Below, piece by piece: positions 2,168 through 61,875 of a stretch of 64,000 nt of DNA. Both the position numbers and the translations under genes were made by a program. A model generated the notes under the pieces. It did no database searches and was not told the origin of the DNA. It saw only the letters and a program-made list of their open reading frames with translations. The stretch's first letter is position 1; each line of letters starts with the position of its first letter. Origin of the DNA: an uncultured Gammaproteobacteria bacterium (GTDB lineage Bacteria > Patescibacteriota > Patescibacteriia > Magasanikbacterales > GWA2-37-8); contig CAZHNI010000001.1 of NCBI GenBank assembly GCA_964533715.1, positions 5,514 to 69,513 on the forward strand, in the 5' to 3' direction.

Positions 2168-3631
2168 ATGGGTTTAGAGGCGAAAGAAATTTTTAAGATT
2201 GTTTTGAATGTTTCCAAGAAAACCAAAATACCGGCATATGTCGTGGGCGGATATGTCCGCGATTTTTTATTGGAAAAAGAGAATAAAAAAGATGTGGATT
2301 TTGTGGTTGCAGGGAGTGGCATAACCTTTGCTCGTGAACTCGACGCAACTTTAAAACAAGAAGGGAGCCTCATTGTATTTGAAGATTTTGATACCGCGCG
2401 TTATGTACTTGGAGAAGGTGAAAATCAAGTAGTCTTAGAATTTGCTGGAGCGCGACAAGAGTTGTATGCTCCGCATTCTCGCAAACCAGTTGTTTCTGAG
2501 GCTTCAATTGAGCAGGATTTAATGCGTCGCGATTTTACCGTTAACGCTTTGGCAGTATTGGTTGATAATTGTGTTATTCGAGGCAAACTGGTACCCACGG
2601 CCACGTTTAAAAAACATATTATTGATCCGTTTGGTGGCCTGGCCGATTTAAAAGAAAAGATTTTAAAAACACCACTCGATCCCGATGTTACGTTTAGTGA
2701 TGATCCGCTCCGCATGCTCCGCGCAGTTCGCTTTGCCGCCCAGCTTAATTTTGCTATTCATCCCAAAACTTTTGAATCGATACACACTAATCGCGAGCGG
2801 ATTAAAATTGTCTCCGCCGAACGTGTCCAGGAAGAGCTACTAAAATTATTAGCTACCAACCAGCCTTCGGTGGGGCTTTTTTTTATGTTCCAATGTCACC
2901 TAATGGATATTATTTTACCCGAAGTATCTAGACTTAATGGTGTAGAAGACGTATTTGGTCATCAGCATAAAGATAACCTCGTCCACTCTTTTAAAGTGGT
3001 AGATAATATTGCCAATGAATCACCAAAAGTATGGCTTCGTCTTGCGGGTCTGCTTCATGATATTGGCAAGCCAGCCACAAAAAAATTTGTACCTAAAATT
3101 GGTTGGACATTTCATGCGCACGAACACATGGGGAGAAAAATGGTTTATGCATTGGCGCGTCGGCTTAAATTTTCTAAGGATTTAACCGATTATCTCGCTA
3201 AACTTGTCAGATGGCATCTTCAGCCAATTGCCCTTATGGACGATGGAATAACCGATTCGGCGGTGCGGCGTTTGGTGGTTACTATGGGGGCAGAGCTTGA
3301 CGATTTACTTATTTTGGGTAGAGGTGATATAACCACAGGGAATCCTTACAAAAAAGAGAAACGTCTTAAAAATTATGATTTGCTAAGAGCTAAGATTGCC
3401 GAACTTATTGAACGCGACAAATTGAACTCTTTTCAATCTCCGGTGCGCGGGGATGAAATTATGGCTGTGTGTAAACTTAAACCAGGACCCACAGTTGGTA
3501 AAATTAAAACGGCCATTGAGGAGGCTATTTTAGACGGAAAGATACCTAATGATCACGAACAGGCGTACGCTTTTTTTCTCAATATTAAGGATTCATTTTG
3601 TTCGGTAGCTGCTGATTGGGAGCGGGTGTAG
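2168..3631 (+). CDS. cca: CCA-adding tRNA nucleotidyltransferase (poly(A) polymerase head domain plus HD domain)
   Basis: Motifs GGYVRDFLL, DVDFVV and RDFTVNALA (pol-beta NTase head). HD phosphohydrolase motif HSFKVVD...LLHDIGK follows. Confidence 0.75.
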   Translation: MGLEAKEIFKIVLNVSKKTKIPAYVVGGYVRDFLLEKENKKDVDFVVAGSGITFARELDATLKQEGSLIVFEDFDTARYVLGEGENQVVLEFAGARQELYAPHSRKPVVSEASIEQDLMRRDFTVNALAVLVDNCVIRGKLVPTATFKKHIIDPFGGLADLKEKILKTPLDPDVTFSDDPLRMLRAVRFAAQLNFAIHPKTFESIHTNRERIKIVSAERVQEELLKLLATNQPSVGLFFMFQCHLMDIILPEVSRLNGVEDVFGHQHKDNLVHSFKVVDNIANESPKVWLRLAGLLHDIGKPATKKFVPKIGWTFHAHEHMGRKMVYALARRLKFSKDLTDYLAKLVRWHLQPIALMDDGITDSAVRRLVVTMGAELDDLLILGRGDITTGNPYKKEKRLKNYDLLRAKIAELIERDKLNSFQSPVRGDEIMAVCKLKPGPTVGKIKTAIEEAILDGKIPNDHEQAYAFFLNIKDSFCSVAADWERV

Positions 3632-3900: not shown

Positions 3901-5664
3901 ATGTCTATGCCAAAAATTTTTAAGAATAAAAAATTTTTAATTGGGGTCGGCTTGATTATTCTGCTTGTTGGATATTATTCATATGGCCGTTATAAAAAAG
4001 CTCACCAGCCAGTAGCGTATGACACTGTATCAGTAAAACGTGGAGATCTGGTGCAAACTGTTGATGCCACCGGAAAATTAGAATCGGTTGACGATGTGGA
4101 TCTTCGTTTTGAAATTCCTGGTACGGTTGGCCAAGTAAATGTTGTTGAGGGTGGGACCGTAAAGGCACAGGCTATTTTAGCGACTCTCCGTTTAGGCGAA
4201 CTTAATGCGGCCGTGGCACAAGCCGCGGCACTTCTTAACCAAAAGTTAGCCGGCGCTTCAACTGAGGATGTGTCATATTATAAAGCTGCTATGGACGCAG
4301 CTCAGGCGTCTTATTTGCAGTCAAAAATTGACGCAGTGGCTTTACTATCCGGTGCTCAATCGGCTGTAGAAACCGCAAAAAATAATTTAAAGCTGGCTGA
4401 GGGCGGCGATCAGAGCCAGATTGTTATTAATGCTTATCAAAATGCAGTCGTAGCACTCCATGAGTCTGTTTCTAAATTGGATGATTCTCTAACCCAAGCG
4501 GATAATATTTTGGCGGTTGATAACGTGCTTGCGAACGATGCTTTTAAAGATTATCTTTCTCGTAATGATATTTCTAAGTTGAATATCGCTAAAGCGTTGT
4601 ATGCTGATGCTAAAATTCAAAAAAATAATTTTAGAAATGTCGCCGTTGTATTGACAACAAATAGCCCGCATGCAGATGTAGATGGCGCCTTTGGTTTGTT
4701 CGACGTGGCTTTTAACAAGATGAACCAGCTCTTAATTGCGGTGTCTGATGTTTTGACCGCGACCCCGCCAGTTTCGAACTTAACCCAGGCAGCACTTGAT
4801 GCCAAGAAAACAATAATTGAAACCGCTCGCGCCGCGCTTTCATCCGAATACGCGACTATGATTAACCAAAAACAATCATTGGCCGACGCAAAAACCAGTT
4901 TGGAAGCTTACTCCGCCGCTTACACCAAGGCCCTGCGCGATTTGGAGTCGGCTAAAGCAAACGCCTCAACTTCAGTGCAACTTAAAGAGGCTGCCTACAC
5001 TCAGGCTTTGTCAACGTATCAAACCAAAGTAAACCCACCACGCGAAGTTGATATAGCGCCTCTTCGCGCCGCTCTTTCACAAGCGGTGGCTAATCGTGAA
5101 AAAGCTATCATTCGTGCGCCATTTGACGGGCAGGTAACTAAGATATCAAAAAAAGTAGGGGAAACAGTTTCTTCGGCAGATATTATTATGAATATGTTTT
5201 CTCCACATTTTGAAATAAAAGTTGATGTTCCCGAAACCGATGTAGCCAAACTTATTGGAAATAATGGCAATGCGGTTACGTTTACCGTTGATGCGCTTGG
5301 AGAAGACCAAAAATTTAACGGTCAAGTTTTAACTATTGAGAAAAAATCAACTGAAATTCAAGATGTTGTATATTATCAAGTACGAATTGCCGTTAATAAA
5401 GGATATGAAGATAAACCGTTTAAATCTGGAATGACCGCCAATGTGGTAATTCACACAGCCGATCGGTCACAGGTTTTGTTTGTTCCACTTCGCGCCGTGC
5501 GAACTCGTACCGATGGCACTAAGTATGTTCGTATTCTTGAGAATGGGGTAGAAAAGGAAGCGACTGTTAAGCTTGGTCTTAAAGCTGATGAAAATAAGGT
5601 TGAAATAGTTGAGGGTCTTACCGAAGATCAGGTGGTTATATTAGGCGTTAAACAGGCAAGTTAA
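3901..5664 (+). CDS. HlyD-family periplasmic adaptor / membrane fusion protein (MacA-like)
   Basis: N-terminal TM segment, long Ala/Gln-rich coiled-coil, and C-terminal beta-barrel (FDGQVTKISKKVGETV...). It is followed by MacB-like ABC genes. Confidence 0.65.
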   Translation: MSMPKIFKNKKFLIGVGLIILLVGYYSYGRYKKAHQPVAYDTVSVKRGDLVQTVDATGKLESVDDVDLRFEIPGTVGQVNVVEGGTVKAQAILATLRLGELNAAVAQAAALLNQKLAGASTEDVSYYKAAMDAAQASYLQSKIDAVALLSGAQSAVETAKNNLKLAEGGDQSQIVINAYQNAVVALHESVSKLDDSLTQADNILAVDNVLANDAFKDYLSRNDISKLNIAKALYADAKIQKNNFRNVAVVLTTNSPHADVDGAFGLFDVAFNKMNQLLIAVSDVLTATPPVSNLTQAALDAKKTIIETARAALSSEYATMINQKQSLADAKTSLEAYSAAYTKALRDLESAKANASTSVQLKEAAYTQALSTYQTKVNPPREVDIAPLRAALSQAVANREKAIIRAPFDGQVTKISKKVGETVSSADIIMNMFSPHFEIKVDVPETDVAKLIGNNGNAVTFTVDALGEDQKFNGQVLTIEKKSTEIQDVVYYQVRIAVNKGYEDKPFKSGMTANVVIHTADRSQVLFVPLRAVRTRTDGTKYVRILENGVEKEATVKLGLKADENKVEIVEGLTEDQVVILGVKQAS

Positions 5665-15430: not shown

Positions 15431-15458
15431 AATGCCGCCTTACGGCGGACATTTATTG
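15431..15458 (+). terminator. rho-independent terminator-like hairpin after the GT2 genes
   Basis: GCCGCC-ttac-GGCGG stem-loop followed by a TTTATT run. Confidence 0.4.
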
Positions 15459-15649
15459 GTGGGTCGGCCGGGGATCGGCTTCACCTCTCGTTCGCTTCCG
15501 CTCACTCGGGTTAGCCACCGCCTCGCCGTCGCGCTCACCACAAAACTCGCGCGACATGGCTCCGGCGTTCGATCCCAGCATGCGACCAAAACTATTTGGT
15601 CGCTCTTCCCACAAAACAAAAAACTCCTCATCGGAGTTATTTTGTTTTG

Positions 15650-15722
15650 TGGGTCGGCCGGGGATCGAACCCGGGACCTTATCCTTAAAAGGGATCTGCT
15701 CTACCAGCTGAGCTACCGACCC
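15650..15722 (-). tRNA. tRNA-Lys (anticodon TTT)
   Basis: Reverse complement gives GGGTCGG acceptor, D-arm GCTC-AGCTGGTA-GAGC, anticodon loop CTTTTAA, T-arm CCGGG-TTCGATC-CCCGG and acceptor CCGACCC+A. There is one G-A mismatch at the top of the anticodon stem. Confidence 0.7.
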
Positions 15723-15908
15723 AAAAGTATTTGTTTTTGGGCTATCCCGATTTTGCGTCGTAGCAAAATCGAGGATCCGCGATTCAGCCGAAACTGAATC
15801 GGGACCGACCAAATTATAGACTTTTGACCATTTACATGATACACTAACTCAATAAACAAATCAAGAGGTTATTCACATTCTTGGTTATTTTGTGTTAATT
15901 TTATACTT

Positions 15909-19330: not shown

Positions 19331-19404
19331 GCGGGTATACTAAGTTATATCCGCGGCGTTCAGAAAAAAATGCTCGAGAGAGCTCGGCATTTTATTCTTC
19401 ACTT

Positions 19405-19475: not shown

Positions 19476-20004
19476 CATTAAAAATCCCCCGCAGTATGAG
19501 CGAGGGATTTTAGTTGTTTATTTTTTAAGACTCTTTGGTTTCATCCAGTAATTTTTACGACGGAATTTTTTTGTTTTTCGTGCCAAGGAGTGGGCTTTTT
19601 TAGTATTTTTTTTGGCGTGTTTTAAACGAGAGCGCAAGGCTGTGTTCATAAGATGATTATTTAAAAGTTTGGGTATAATAGCAGATTATCTTTAAAAATG
19701 CAAATTTTGCTTAGTCAAGCAAAAACTTTTCATTAAATTTTAAATTATTATTCGAGTAATTTAATTACCTAACCGTTGGTTGATACTCAGAATAGTACAC
19801 CTATAAAGTACACCTATACTTGACACCTGTAACAAATTGGTGTAGGCTTGTTTTGCCAAACTCCTGGCTTTTTTTGTTACCCAATTCGCCGCACCGCGCA
19901 TGTGGTGGGTAGGGAACAGGGGAACCACGGAGTTACAACCACGGGCCGCGCACGGCTGCGCGCGCCCACATCCCGCTACGCGAAAGGCGGGAGGAGGATT
20001 GACC

Positions 20005-21513
20005 ATGTTGCATCGCTGGTTCGTCACGATCGTGGCGTTCGCCTTGGCCCTGGGCCTCGGCAGCGCCGTCAACATCAACGTCAACAGCAACCGCCCCGTC
20101 CTCGGCGCCATCGTCGGCGTACTGGGTGAGGGGGTGGCGGCCGCGCAGGTGCCGACCAACTACCGGTTCTTCAACGGCACCGGCGTGAACGGCCAGCTCG
20201 GCCAGCCCTACACGCAGGGCGCTCAGTCGGCGCTCAAGGTGCGGATCGAGAAGGTGTGGCCCACCATCGCCAAGCGGCACCAGAATGCCCTGGAGTATTA
20301 TGGGGTAATGGCCAACACCAACTGGTTCAGGAACAACTCCGGTCCGCAAGGGGAGTACTGGTTCGTGGCGGGGATCTTCCGCCAGCTCACCAAGATCCCG
20401 CTGGACGACCGAAACAAGACAAACGAGGCACTGGTGGGAAAGATCTCATCGGATCCTGACTATGTCGACTCGCTGATGATCATGAACAAGACCGGCGCGC
20501 TCATCAGCGGTGGGTACGTGGGCGAGGTGCACGTCTATTTCGGCGATGTGAAGGGTGGGTGCACGCCGAACGCCCTGGCCTACTACTTCTCTCCCCCTGA
20601 CATTTCGGGGATGAAGGTAGTCGGAGTTGTGCTCTGCGGAGACGACGGCGTCCGGGTGGCCAACTTGCCAACCGACTTCGGTGGTTTCGATACTACCCTG
20701 GAAAGCATCTTCGTCCACGAGTTCGCGCATGCCGTCGACGACGTACACAAGGCAACCACAGGCAATGAGCTGAACATCTCGGATATCATGGAGATGGATC
20801 GGTCCTGCATCCGGGTCTACGGGTTGAAGGGGATCTTGGCGTTGGTGGGGAACTCGGCCTACGATCCGCTCACGTATCTCGATCTGCGAACCATCGCGGA
20901 TTGGTACCCGATCTGGGTGTCGGTGATCAACTACAATTACGATGCTTCGAAGCAGATACTGGTCGGGATGAACGTGGCGGGCGGGTCGTGCGGAGGTGTG
21001 CAAGACGATGTCGGGACGTGCAAGAACGGGCAGACCCCCGTTGCCGCTTGCGGCGGCCTCCCCATCGGCGACGCCGGCACCCCTACCGACGGGGGCATAG
21101 CACCCCTCGACCTCGGCGGCAGCTTCAGAACCCCTTGCACCTCCGACTCGCAGTGCGCCAGCAAGGTGTGCCAAGACGGCCTTTGCCGCAGCCCGTACTG
21201 CGGCAACGGAGTTTTGAACCGCGTGGGTGTCGGAGGAGGCTCCGGTGAGTCCGACATTGACTGCGGAGGGGAGGAATGCGGCAGGTGCGCCGATGGCAAG
21301 AAGTGCTTCGCGGCCACCGACTGCAAGTCCGGCGTGTGCACCGGCGGCAAGTGCGCGGGGGGCGGTGATGTCCAGGGCGGCTGCGATGTCGGCACCGGAC
21401 GCGGTGACCGCAACTGGGGCGCCATTGTGCTCCTGCTCGCTGTGCTCCTCATCTTTTCGTCGGCCATCGCCGCTTGGCGGCAGTTCGAACGGAAGCAAGG
21501 GCGTCGCACCTAG
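20005..21513 (+). CDS. secreted, C-terminally membrane-anchored zinc metalloprotease-like protein with a Cys-rich stalk
   Basis: RBS GGAGGAGG 8 nt upstream of ATG 20005. Signal peptide MLHRWFVTIVAFALALGLGSA. HEFAHAVDDVH, an HExxH motif with a third His at metzincin spacing. Repeated CxxGxC modules (CGNGVLN, CGGEECGRC, CKSGVCTGGKC), a C-terminal TM helix and a basic tail. Confidence 0.6.
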   Translation: MLHRWFVTIVAFALALGLGSAVNINVNSNRPVLGAIVGVLGEGVAAAQVPTNYRFFNGTGVNGQLGQPYTQGAQSALKVRIEKVWPTIAKRHQNALEYYGVMANTNWFRNNSGPQGEYWFVAGIFRQLTKIPLDDRNKTNEALVGKISSDPDYVDSLMIMNKTGALISGGYVGEVHVYFGDVKGGCTPNALAYYFSPPDISGMKVVGVVLCGDDGVRVANLPTDFGGFDTTLESIFVHEFAHAVDDVHKATTGNELNISDIMEMDRSCIRVYGLKGILALVGNSAYDPLTYLDLRTIADWYPIWVSVINYNYDASKQILVGMNVAGGSCGGVQDDVGTCKNGQTPVAACGGLPIGDAGTPTDGGIAPLDLGGSFRTPCTSDSQCASKVCQDGLCRSPYCGNGVLNRVGVGGGSGESDIDCGGEECGRCADGKKCFAATDCKSGVCTGGKCAGGGDVQGGCDVGTGRGDRNWGAIVLLLAVLLIFSSAIAAWRQFERKQGRRT

Positions 21514-37772: not shown

Positions 37773-38159
37773 ATGGAGGAAAGATATCGTGATTTTACAG
37801 AGCTTGAAGTTTGGCAAAAAGCGCATGAACTAAGATTAAAAGTACGGATTCTTTGCAAATTTCTACCATCTGAAGAAAAATATGGCCTGATCTCACAAAT
37901 TTTAAGATCGTCCGCTTCAGTCGGTGCTAATATAGCTGAAGGTCATGGTAGATTTCACTATCAAGAAAATATCCAATATTGCAGACAAGCAAGAGGATCG
38001 CTAGATGAAACTCGTGATCATCTAATCTATATACGTGACGCTGATTTAATAAGAAAAGTGAGTAGTTTGGAATATTTAGTTAATCTATGTTTACAAATAA
38101 AGGCTTTGTTAAATGGTTATATCGGTTATTTAAAAAAATGTAAACAAGGGCAAGACTAA
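37773..38159 (+). CDS. four-helix-bundle protein (23S rRNA intervening-sequence protein family)
   Basis: Characteristic LEVWQKAHEL...SASVGANIAEGHGR...DETRDHL pattern of the four-helix-bundle/IVS protein family; AT-richer than its neighbours. Confidence 0.6.
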   Translation: MEERYRDFTELEVWQKAHELRLKVRILCKFLPSEEKYGLISQILRSSASVGANIAEGHGRFHYQENIQYCRQARGSLDETRDHLIYIRDADLIRKVSSLEYLVNLCLQIKALLNGYIGYLKKCKQGQD

Positions 38160-60569: not shown

Positions 60570-61292
60570 ATGACTACTGAATTAAGTATAGCAGACATTA
60601 AAAAAGAACTCAATGCACAGATTAAGGATCCGGAAACGCTTAAATCTTTGTTGGTTACTACCTTCAAAGGTTTAACCGCGGACACAGCCAAACAAGCCAT
60701 GTTAGAAGGGATGATGCGCGGTTTTACTTTCAAGGACTTTCTCCAGAAAAATGTTTATGCCGTGCCGTTCGGTCAATCTTACAGCCTTGTTACGTCGATT
60801 GATAATGCCAGAAGAATAGGCATGCGCAATGATGTGGTAGGCAAAACAGCCCCAATCTACGAGGAAGAGGTTATTACTACCGGCGAGAAAAAGGTAAACA
60901 AAATCGTTTCGTGCACTGTTACAGTAAAACGCAAAATTAAGGACTACATAGGTGATTTTACAGCGACGGTATTCTTTGATGAGTATAACACGGGACGCAA
61001 CCAATGGGCTTCCAAGCCGCGCACCATGATCGCTAAAGTTGCCGAGATGCACGCCCTGCGCATGGCTTGCCCGGAAGACGCCTCGCAGATGTACCTTGAG
61101 GAAGAATACGAAAAAGAAACAATCGTTGAAGAAGAGATATTTAATCTTGAGGAGCACAAATTAAAATTAGAAGCCTGTAAAAATCTTGAAGAAGTAAAAA
61201 CAGTTTGGGCCTCTTTACCGGCTAAAGCTAAAGGCGAGCTGTTTACACTCAAAGAAGAAATGAAAAAAAAATATGAAAGTCCTAAAGTTTAA
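60570..61292 (+). CDS. recT: RecT-family single-strand annealing protein
   Basis: RecT core including W..KPRTMIAKVAEMHALRMACPED, matching the RecT W-x-P-x-M-x-x-K-x-A motif. Confidence 0.65.
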   Translation: MTTELSIADIKKELNAQIKDPETLKSLLVTTFKGLTADTAKQAMLEGMMRGFTFKDFLQKNVYAVPFGQSYSLVTSIDNARRIGMRNDVVGKTAPIYEEEVITTGEKKVNKIVSCTVTVKRKIKDYIGDFTATVFFDEYNTGRNQWASKPRTMIAKVAEMHALRMACPEDASQMYLEEEYEKETIVEEEIFNLEEHKLKLEACKNLEEVKTVWASLPAKAKGELFTLKEEMKKKYESPKV

Positions 61293-61875
61293 TAACGAGG
61301 AAGCGTGGCTAGAAGCCCGCAAAACTAAAATAACCGGTTCGCGCCTCAAGGATATTGTCGTCAAACGCGGTACAGGGCAAAAAATAGGCTATTACGAGCT
61401 TATTGCCGAGCGTTTGGCGCTTCCACCTAACGGACAAGACCCAATGGACAGAGGGCACGAATTAGAGAAAGAAGCGATGGAGCGGTTTACTAAGGAAATG
61501 GGAAAAAAGGTTGATGGGAGTTTGGTAATTTGGACGCGAGAGGACAACGAAAGTATTGCAATTTCACCAGATGGTTTTATTGGTAAAACCGAGGCCGTTG
61601 AGGTGAAGTGTTTATCATCGGCCCGGCACATTGAAGCGTTTTTAACGCAACAGATACCAGACGAATATCACTTGCAAGTCATTCAATACTTCATCGTAAA
61701 CGACAAACTCAAAACTCTATATTTCTGTTTCTACGATCCGCGTTTATCGGTTAAAGATTTTTTCTATATCACAGTTGAGCGCGAACAAATTAAGGAAGAA
61801 GTTGATAATTATTTGGAGTATCAAAAAAAGATTCTGCAAGAGGTAAACGACATAGTGAACAAGTTGACGTTCTAA
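61273..61875 (+). CDS. YqaJ-like viral recombinase exonuclease (lambda Exo-like PD-(D/E)xK)
   Basis: N-terminal EAWLEARKTKITGSRLKDIV (the YqaJ QGSxEWLxxRxGxxTAS pattern) and a D...EVK catalytic core; overlaps the recT stop. Confidence 0.65.
   Translation: MKVLKFNNEEAWLEARKTKITGSRLKDIVVKRGTGQKIGYYELIAERLALPPNGQDPMDRGHELEKEAMERFTKEMGKKVDGSLVIWTREDNESIAISPDGFIGKTEAVEVKCLSSARHIEAFLTQQIPDEYHLQVIQYFIVNDKLKTLYFCFYDPRLSVKDFFYITVEREQIKEEVDNYLEYQKKILQEVNDIVNKLTF

Follow-up and report, generated by a model that had tools for sequence, protein, structure and literature searches.

The stretch of DNA analysed here, referred to throughout as the window, is 64 kb long and carries an intact tRNA-Lys(UUU) gene on its minus strand at 15649..15722 (ARAGORN), with the CCA unencoded; Rfam RF00005 scored 68.7 bits over 15650-15722. 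The 19-mer GTGGGTCGGCCGGGGATCG is present twice, at 15459-15477 and at 15649-15667, and the window holds no third copy with three or fewer mismatches. None of 100 dinucleotide shuffles gave a match, and none is expected by chance. When one mismatch is permitted, the repeat extends to 21 identical bases out of 22 (15456-77 versus 15646-67). Since ARAGORN and Rfam place the tRNA-Lys gene at 15649/50-15722, the near copy of the repeat (15646..15667, minus strand, with its 19 exact bases at 15649-67) corresponds to tRNA positions 56-73 plus one base. The far, displaced copy (15456..15477, minus strand) reads CGATCCCCGGCCGACCCA on the minus strand, followed by CCA (15459-15457). The block of identity has sharp borders, starting at C56 in the T-loop and ending one base past the discriminator. 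The 7-nt T-loop is only partly covered, with T54 and T55 lying outside the block. CCA follows the far copy only; it is encoded neither at the near copy nor in the window's two other tRNA genes, and a gene for the CCA-adding enzyme is located in the window at 2168-3631. The sequence-only reading had proposed a 19-bp duplication of the tRNA-Lys 3' end, the second occurrence forming the end of the minus-strand gene itself. Both points were borne out: the duplication is exact and occurs only twice in the window, and the two programs agree on the position of the gene. The Logan assembly of run SRR11567528 (L130) was identical at 378 of 378 bases across both repeat copies. The structure is therefore not an artefact of a single assembly, and an assembly artefact was ruled out.

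On the tRNA strand, the order of features is the tRNA, CAAAAC.., a hairpin of 20 pairs (15608-53), a hairpin of 9 bp (15582-603), a GC-rich stretch, CGATCCCCGGCCGACCCA-CCA and a terminator (15448-33). The locus is flanked by a cluster of cell-wall glycosyltransferase genes on one side and by translin, Mur ligase, DivIC and SurA genes on the other, the latter block being found again in relatives. The bacterial translin-family gene (PF01997, 15909-16481) has 60-75% identity across Magasanikbacteria and adjoins tRNA-Lys in most of the genomes read. The names of its homologs assign the window to a Candidatus Magasanikbacteria (Patescibacteria) genome. In a Pfam scan of every open reading frame of at least 120 aa, no integrase or transposase was detected in the 64-kb window and no recombinase gene adjoined the locus. 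The sole recombination genes, RecT and YqaJ, are 45 kb away. These neighbouring genes, a phage-type single-strand-annealing pair of RecT and a YqaJ-like exonuclease followed by open reading frames with no Pfam match, occupy 60570-61875 and may mark the edge of a prophage or mobile region. Several other features of the window were recorded. At 19331-19404, 74 nt upstream of tRNA-Gly, a 9-nt copy of that gene's 5' end (GCGGGTATA) and its inverted counterpart pair into a hairpin, after which comes a second, terminator-like one; in the relative L003, SurA and tRNA-Gly are separated by only about 25 nt. Beyond tRNA-Gly (19480-21513) there is an AT-rich gap of 420 bp and then an open reading frame of 537 aa with no Pfam match. 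A gene for a 23S rRNA-intervening-sequence protein (PF05635) is located at 37773-38159, between the genes for the ATP synthase gamma and beta subunits.

Make-up of the insert and of the tRNA leader

The 171 bp between the two copies have a GC content of 54%, as compared with 41% for the window and 26-28% for the neighbouring spacers. The GC richness of the segment noted in the sequence-only reading is thus real, and its figure of about 58% has to be lowered. For the interval flagged in that reading the value is 59%, and it rises to 61% when the A/T-rich hairpin is left out. The hairpin itself (15608..15653) is a long palindrome, which occupies the spot of the tRNA-Lys terminator in relatives. 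It had been described as a perfect 20-bp stem; it consists of 20 pairs with one bulged A (15608-27 / 15633-53). Its right arm shares 5 nt with the tRNA end, and its inner 6-bp stem together with a T-run (15622-15638) scores as a bidirectional intrinsic terminator. A second hairpin of 9 bp, GCGACCAAA / TTTGGTCGC, is located at 15582..15603. Judged by eye, there is a likeness between its loop plus 3' arm and the spacer plus tRNA start (AAATAgTTTTGGTCGc versus AAATAcTTTTGGGTCGG). Past the far copy by 8-10 nt there is a GC-rich terminator hairpin (15433..15448) with the better T-run on the minus strand. A GC stem plus a T-run after the gene, as in intrinsic terminators, is found on the minus strand at 15638-15622 and at 15448-15435, which accounts for only 2 x 17 nt of the segment.

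Between the hairpins and the far copy, the DNA contains pieces of the tRNA-Lys gene itself. An inverted copy of the T-arm (15561..15576, minus strand) matches at 14 of 16 positions, including an exact run of 10 nt, GGGATCGAAC; its predicted pairing partner is the first part of the far copy. From the inverted arm to the far copy runs a GC-rich spacer of 92 nt (15478..15569, minus strand) with two predicted hairpins. One of the spacer hairpins, GTCGCGC/GCGCGAC (7 bp, 15528-34/15549-55), has a loop complementary to the tRNA 3' junction CCACAAAAC, and this loop holds the inverted copy of that junction, GTTTTGTGG. A direct repeat inside the insert matches at 16 of 19 positions. Outside the far copy and the arm of the long hairpin, 8-mers that also occur in the tRNA locus cover 19 nt of the interior, as compared with 1.6 +/- 3.6 in shuffles, and 3 of 2000 shuffles reached the observed value; antisense pieces of the adjacent tRNA gene are thus significantly over-represented there. 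Half of the insert is made from tRNA-Lys pieces, the inverted T-arm copy among them. Judging from these matches, the insert is not plain foreign DNA but holds inverted copies of the T-arm and of the 3' junction of the tRNA.

In the predicted fold, a stem of the inverted T-arm and the beginning of the far copy closes off a domain with two hairpins. Over 221 nt the folding z-score is -7.3, and the GC-rich part has -3.6. Folding is equally good on the plus strand, which means that the structure may belong to the DNA itself. Candidate identities of the segment were tried one after another. A protein-coding remnant was rejected, as none of the three open reading frames that cross the segment has a Pfam match. 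A known structured RNA family was rejected likewise, as the tRNA alone matched in Rfam 15, both at the gathering threshold and at E <= 10. ARAGORN found no tmRNA or permuted tmRNA, and the acceptor is devoid of G3:U70. No further copy of the insert was present elsewhere in the window or in 130 loci.

The other side of the gene is built in a similarly composite way. In the tRNA leader, positions 2-14 of the gene are copied, with an element of 61 nt splitting the copy between positions 7 and 8. Its upstream part (GGTCGGT, positions 2-8) is located at 15804..15810 on the minus strand. The interrupting element (15745..15805, minus strand) is a palindromic repeat with two hairpins, GTCCCGA..TCGCGGATCCTCGA..TCGGGA. 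It is followed at 15723..15744 (minus strand) by TAGCCCA, which equals positions 8-14 with one mismatch, and by an A-rich spacer of 15 nt leading into the tRNA. The double-hairpin element is dispersed, with more than 119 loci among the matches listed, in metagenome-assembled genomes (MAGs) of Patescibacteria and Bacteroidales and with several copies per genome. Its consensus is GTCCCGA-[hairpin]-TCGAGGATCCTCGA-[hairpin]-TCGGGA(C), in which the core is conserved and the stems vary with compensation. Copies are often bordered by direct repeats of 5-6 bp, and no Rfam family matches the element. At least eight copies are located inside partial 5' tRNA copies, right upstream of an intact gene. The same leader arrangement occurs in L006 with that locus's own acceptor sequence (GGGGCGG) and with compensatory changes in one hairpin, and again at a tRNA-Ile gene of another lineage (L047), which also has a far 3' copy with CCA. 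In both L006 and L047, the upstream 5'-end copy covaries with the tRNA. Three origins are conceivable for the 5' copy: a target duplication caused by the double-hairpin element, an att fragment of the 5' type, or a remnant of an older gene. Islands of the 5'-fragment type are represented by 159 entries in the Islander collection (PMC4383910).

tRNA loci in related genomes and a recurrent layout

We compared the orthologous tRNA-Lys upstream of the translin gene in eight related genomes. In four of them (L003, L005, L129 and L137) the tRNA-Lys is directly followed by a palindromic terminator and a second copy is absent; in two (L006 and L128) the contigs stop inside tRNA-Lys. The remaining two carry other inserts at the same gene. 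The insert in L001 is different, with a length of about 530 bp and an open reading frame of 86 aa, and ends in a decayed copy of positions 32-74. The insert in L138 is free of genes and has the same build as that of the window. The four empty relatives indicate that the insertion in the window is lineage-specific, and the different insertion in L001 indicates that tRNA-Lys has been targeted repeatedly. The 19-bp duplication is real and marks the junctions of a small insertion, specific to this lineage, at the tRNA-Lys 3' end. In the sequence-only reading, such a comparison across related genomes was to tell a scar from a structural or terminator role, the latter being suggested if relatives had the same duplication with no element. 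The outcome lies halfway, in that L138 and L001 carry analogous inserts, independently built, with no integrase.

The inserts in the window, L138 and L001 have a layout in common, which is new here. An inverted copy of 10-12 nt of the tRNA is followed by a spacer of 92-98 nt with hairpins and by a direct partial copy, and the three spacer sequences are unrelated. In terms of tRNA positions, the window has an antisense copy of 53-62, a spacer of 92 nt and a direct copy of 56-74; L138 has an antisense copy of 52-63, a spacer of 94 nt and a direct copy of 53-66; and L001 has an antisense copy of 37-46, a spacer of 98 nt and a direct copy of 33-74. The layout extends over 2080-2252 in L138 and 2860-3406 in L001, in both cases downstream of the locus's own tRNA-Lys terminator. 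The copies carry the T-loop allele of their own genome at the variable position 59, TTCGATC in the window and TTCGAGC in L138. The acceptor/CCA part of the direct copy is decayed in L138 and L001. The spacer of L138 folds into a closed domain of two hairpins with a z-score of -2.2. The trailers of the window and L138 can be aligned only in their tRNA-derived parts, and in the translin tree the window, L138/L001 and L006/L003/L005 form three separate clades. The separate clades and the unalignable interiors argue for independent events. The regularity of the layout is predicted neither by a simple att scar nor by a randomly decaying remnant.

Nested and partial tRNA genes were encountered at other loci as well. 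In L109 (about 4205-4349, minus strand), a complete outer tRNA-Trp has its anticodon loop interrupted by 109 nt that hold a complete inner tRNA-Trp, and ARAGORN recognises the tRNA once the insert is removed. A tRNA-Ile in L075 (1118-1490) has an insert at 35/36 with the same termini as in L109, CCCGCCTGC...GCAGG, and a tRNA-Val in L044 (1240-1720) shows similar nesting with stacked older 5' halves. Position 35/36 is a reported site of group I introns in Patescibacteria (PMC13011429). No group I intron match was obtained at the window locus or in seven related loci, nested inserts included. A likeness of 12 nt to the trailer of L075 was judged to be due to chance. Partial tRNA copies beside tRNA genes are common in the loci fetched, which were chosen for carrying the double-hairpin element. 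In two MAGs labelled Gammaproteobacteria, a tRNA-Ile locus (L047, 6390-6690) and a tRNA-Lys(CUU) locus (L058, 3393-3575) share a two-hairpin module (..GGTTCA.., CCATGCACC..GGTGCATGG) followed by a partial 3' tRNA copy, and the acceptor strand of the copy in L058 differs from that of the intact gene.

Origin of the insert

The explanation that we favour, though tentatively, is that the repeat marks the ends of an insertion that is confined to this lineage and about 190 bp long, a non-autonomous stub left by site-specific recombination at the T-loop-to-3'-end segment of tRNA-Lys. Recombination would have taken place inside that segment of a tRNA-Lys(UUU) gene that looks single-copy. One copy of the segment would then complete a working tRNA, and the other would be a displaced, non-functional fragment that keeps its original downstream flank, i.e. 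the bases read as CCA and the strong terminator. The DNA between the copies would be a gene-less, hairpin-rich stub consisting of a terminator for the rebuilt tRNA, the inverted T-arm and the GC-rich spacer of 92 nt. Such a stub would be unable to move on its own and would represent what is left of an integrative element directed at tRNA genes, either the arms of its attachment site or a miniature mobilisable in cis, after loss of the interior with the recombinase gene. The model predicts an attP of the form ..GGTGAAGC + core + AAAACAAAATAACTCC.., i.e. ...GAGAGGTGAAGC + CGATCCCCGGCCGACCCAC + AAAACAAAATAACTCC... We infer a site-specific recombinase as the maker, the native identity of the flank and the inverted copy as a putative recombinase-binding site.

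The geometry is consistent with such an origin. An intact tRNA gene is accompanied by a displaced fragment in the same orientation, the block of identity reaches from the T-loop region to the tRNA 3' end (T54 and T55 excepted), and the site is unoccupied in the four relatives L003, L005, L129 and L137. The anomalous base composition of the insert and the other insertion at the same gene in L001 count in its favour too. Viral sequences provide a further line of evidence. With a degenerate pattern of the tRNA-Lys 3' end, five viral contigs gave a match outside any tRNA gene. In L131 (3547-4815), the fragment spans from the anticodon loop to CCA and lies 125 nt from a tyrosine integrase gene (PF00589). 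In L132, L133 and L135, the identity starts exactly at the first base of the T-loop, and the fragment overlaps the end of a capsid gene. These attP-like fragments indicate that viruses targeting this tRNA end exist.

A parent element was searched for as well. The insert was absent from all virus, plasmid, genome and metagenome collections searched, and neither the same element nor its attP was found among viral contigs, genomes, phages and plasmids. Five of six exact patterns returned nothing from the viral contigs and the sixth gave one match (L136), apparently by chance; patterns from inside the insert or across its junctions, the P-core junction among them, gave zero matches, three having been run on viral contigs and one on genomes. 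Phages and plasmids yielded weak chance matches only. Metagenome scans for the upstream repeat with its tRNA context returned nothing, or one chance match in a coding region. An internal 22-mer had no match in the genome collection, which indicates that the source genome itself is absent from that collection.

The proposal of a decayed att site or miniature integrated remnant made from the sequence alone is therefore backed by the geometry, the empty sites and the viral attP-like fragments, and is weakened by the missing recombinase, insert homolog and attP, by the tRNA-derived interior and by the recurrent layout. The integrase gene between tRNA and fragment on which Islander filters is absent from the 171 bp, which are free of genes. 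The hairpin that adjoins the intact gene looks like L003's native terminator (ACTCC..GGAGT), where an att model expects element DNA. T-loop integrases exchange strands in the T-loop segment that holds T54 and T55, and the missing T54/T55 counts against an integrase origin. The upstream 5'-end copy would need a second event under an att model.

A local templated rearrangement is possible but unlikely. By template switching during replication or repair, or by homology-anchored illegitimate recombination at a highly conserved gene, pieces of the tRNA would have been copied both ways together with filler, and no site-specific recombinase would be involved. It would account for an interior that is a mosaic of local pieces, namely the inverted T-arm, the inverted 3' junction and the direct repeat of 16/19, and for the fact that all copies match their own genome's allele at T-loop position 59. 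The incomplete T-loop in the identity block, the failure to find either a recombinase or a foreign homolog, and the short 5'-end copies that flank both tRNA-Lys and tRNA-Gly in the window are in line with it too. However, about 60 nt of the GC-rich spacer have no local template, a spacing of 92-98 nt at three loci is unexpected from random repair, and the sharp 19-bp direct repeat stands in the classical T-loop-to-3'-end register that is the trace of an integrase.

With a similarly low probability, the three Magasanikbacteria loci may represent an undescribed, hairpin-rich tRNA-gene insert of about 95 nt that comes to lie between an inverted copy of 10-12 nt and a direct copy complete at the 3' end, both derived from the host's own allele, being either a new non-autonomous element that copies its target in both orientations or an RNA device with an anti-T-arm and a decoy tRNA end. 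The functional version, in which a structured trailer RNA, about 150 nt long and with ..ACCCACCA at its end, would be transcribed with or after tRNA-Lys and would act in cis or in trans on its maturation or stability through the antisense T-arm and the decoy 3' end, seems improbable to us. The strong predicted structure of both the 221 nt and the GC-rich part, shared in topology by L138, suggests it, as does the position of a GC-rich segment between two terminators in an AT-rich genome. The antisense arm and the direct copy follow their own T-loop allele, which would be covariation if the loci are homologous, and the upstream 5'-end copy follows the acceptor stem in L006 and L047. Against these observations, the segment has no Rfam family and no alignable homolog and is missing in four relatives, and the equal folding of the plus strand is what DNA palindromes are expected to give. 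Decay of the acceptor/CCA part in L138 and L001 also speaks against an RNA role. As no more than two or three loci are involved, independent recent copying explains the allele matching equally well.

Just as improbable is a relic of an older tRNA-Lys, in which the 5' copy (positions 1-14) and the far 3' copy (positions 56-76 with CCA) would be the remains of a resident gene into which a replacement tRNA-Lys with its terminator was inserted. The intact gene is indeed bracketed by its own 5' and 3' ends in the correct order and orientation, the tRNA-Ile of L047 has the same bracket with CCA on the far copy only, and in L109, L075 and L044 an outer tRNA, complete or half, is interrupted by a full tRNA of the same identity. 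At several such loci the double-hairpin repeat is located in the dead outer 5' part. However, positions 15-55 of an outer gene are missing in the window, and the termini of the nested cases, CCCGCCTGC...GCAGG, are absent. L006 has the 5' copy, the repeat and the spacer, and there the copy fits an acceptor stem that differs from the window's, which would be unexpected of a dead relic; the 5' copy could also be a target duplication of 6-7 bp made by the repeat element. Ordinary intergenic DNA with two back-to-back terminators, the repeat being coincidental or an assembly error, is hardly credible: two bidirectional terminator-like hairpins are present and relatives regularly have long palindromic terminators abutting the tRNA, but a 19-mer repeat is unexpected by chance, the second assembly is identical, and the relatives have one hairpin and no GC-rich segment.

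Significance and comparison with known systems

If the locus is only a decayed att scar, it is a routine finding and an ordinary marker of past integration. It would then indicate that tRNA-Lys is a hot spot even in the tiny genomes of Patescibacteria and that deletion bias trims elements to stubs of about 170 bp. If one mechanism makes the layout, it would be a previously unknown route of invasion, duplication or replacement of tRNA genes in the Candidate Phyla Radiation. One copy per tRNA is usual in these genomes, so that insertions must preserve function. Should the reading as a small insert be true, it would suggest, together with the 5'-end copies and the nested tRNAs, that tRNA genes are turned over by a dedicated mechanism in reduced genomes. 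What merits follow-up is the recurrent layout and the tRNA genes bracketed by their own ends; as an att scar the locus is ordinary. A single mechanism behind the layout would also be a warning to annotators that partial and nested tRNA copies are common beside tRNA genes in this phylum.

Several known systems resemble the locus in part. Casposons and Cas1-type integrations at tRNA 3' ends produce a long direct duplication (14-15 bp or more) made from the target itself. A long direct duplication of the tRNA 3' end is found here too, and since a duplication made from the target itself leaves both copies with the genome's own allele, this type of integration would explain the own-allele copies. 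However, there is no Cas1 or polymerase and there are no matching terminal inverted repeats, and the repeat length varies among the three Magasanikbacteria loci. MITEs and foldback elements are likewise small, non-coding and rich in hairpins, with short inverted arms (here GGGATCG / CGATCCC). The insert differs from them in being single-copy in 64 kb, in having arms derived from the target and in having a repeat of 19 bp that is too long for the usual target duplication. A MITE was rejected, as no other copy was present in the window or in 130 loci and the arms derive from the target. The group I tRNA introns of Patescibacteria share with the insert the phylum and the nature of structured, GC-rich inserts in tRNA genes that are missed by annotation tools (PMC13011429). 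Those introns fit the group I model and interrupt the anticodon loop at 35/36. The insert here instead follows position 73 of a tRNA that is complete, repeats exon sequence and gave no Rfam match at E <= 10. A group I intron was rejected: no model matched, and the tRNA is complete without splicing.

The closest parallels are provided by integrative elements. Islander maps islands in tRNA genes by the principle of an intact tRNA gene with a displaced 3' fragment in the same orientation; the fragment is a 3' one in 3760 of 3919 islands, and the site is in the T-stem region in 1836 (PMC4383910). As in tRNA-integrated islands and prophages with tyrosine integrases, an intact gene is accompanied here by a direct 3' fragment, with a block from T-loop to 3' end, empty relatives and viral attP-like fragments. 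Unlike them, the locus has no integrase or cargo, only 171 bp between the repeats and the first two T-loop bases outside the block, and its interior has an inverted copy of the target at a regular distance of some 95 nt. Cis-mobilisable elements, or CIMEs, form an established class in which attL and attR persist after loss of the recombination and transfer genes (PMC6323972). The CIMEs described so far stem from identified Firmicutes ICEs and measure kilobases, whereas the stub is about ten times smaller and no cognate element was found. What the stub shares with them is the architecture, in which two att-like repeats, identical at 19 of 19 positions, flank DNA that contains no genes and no recombinase.
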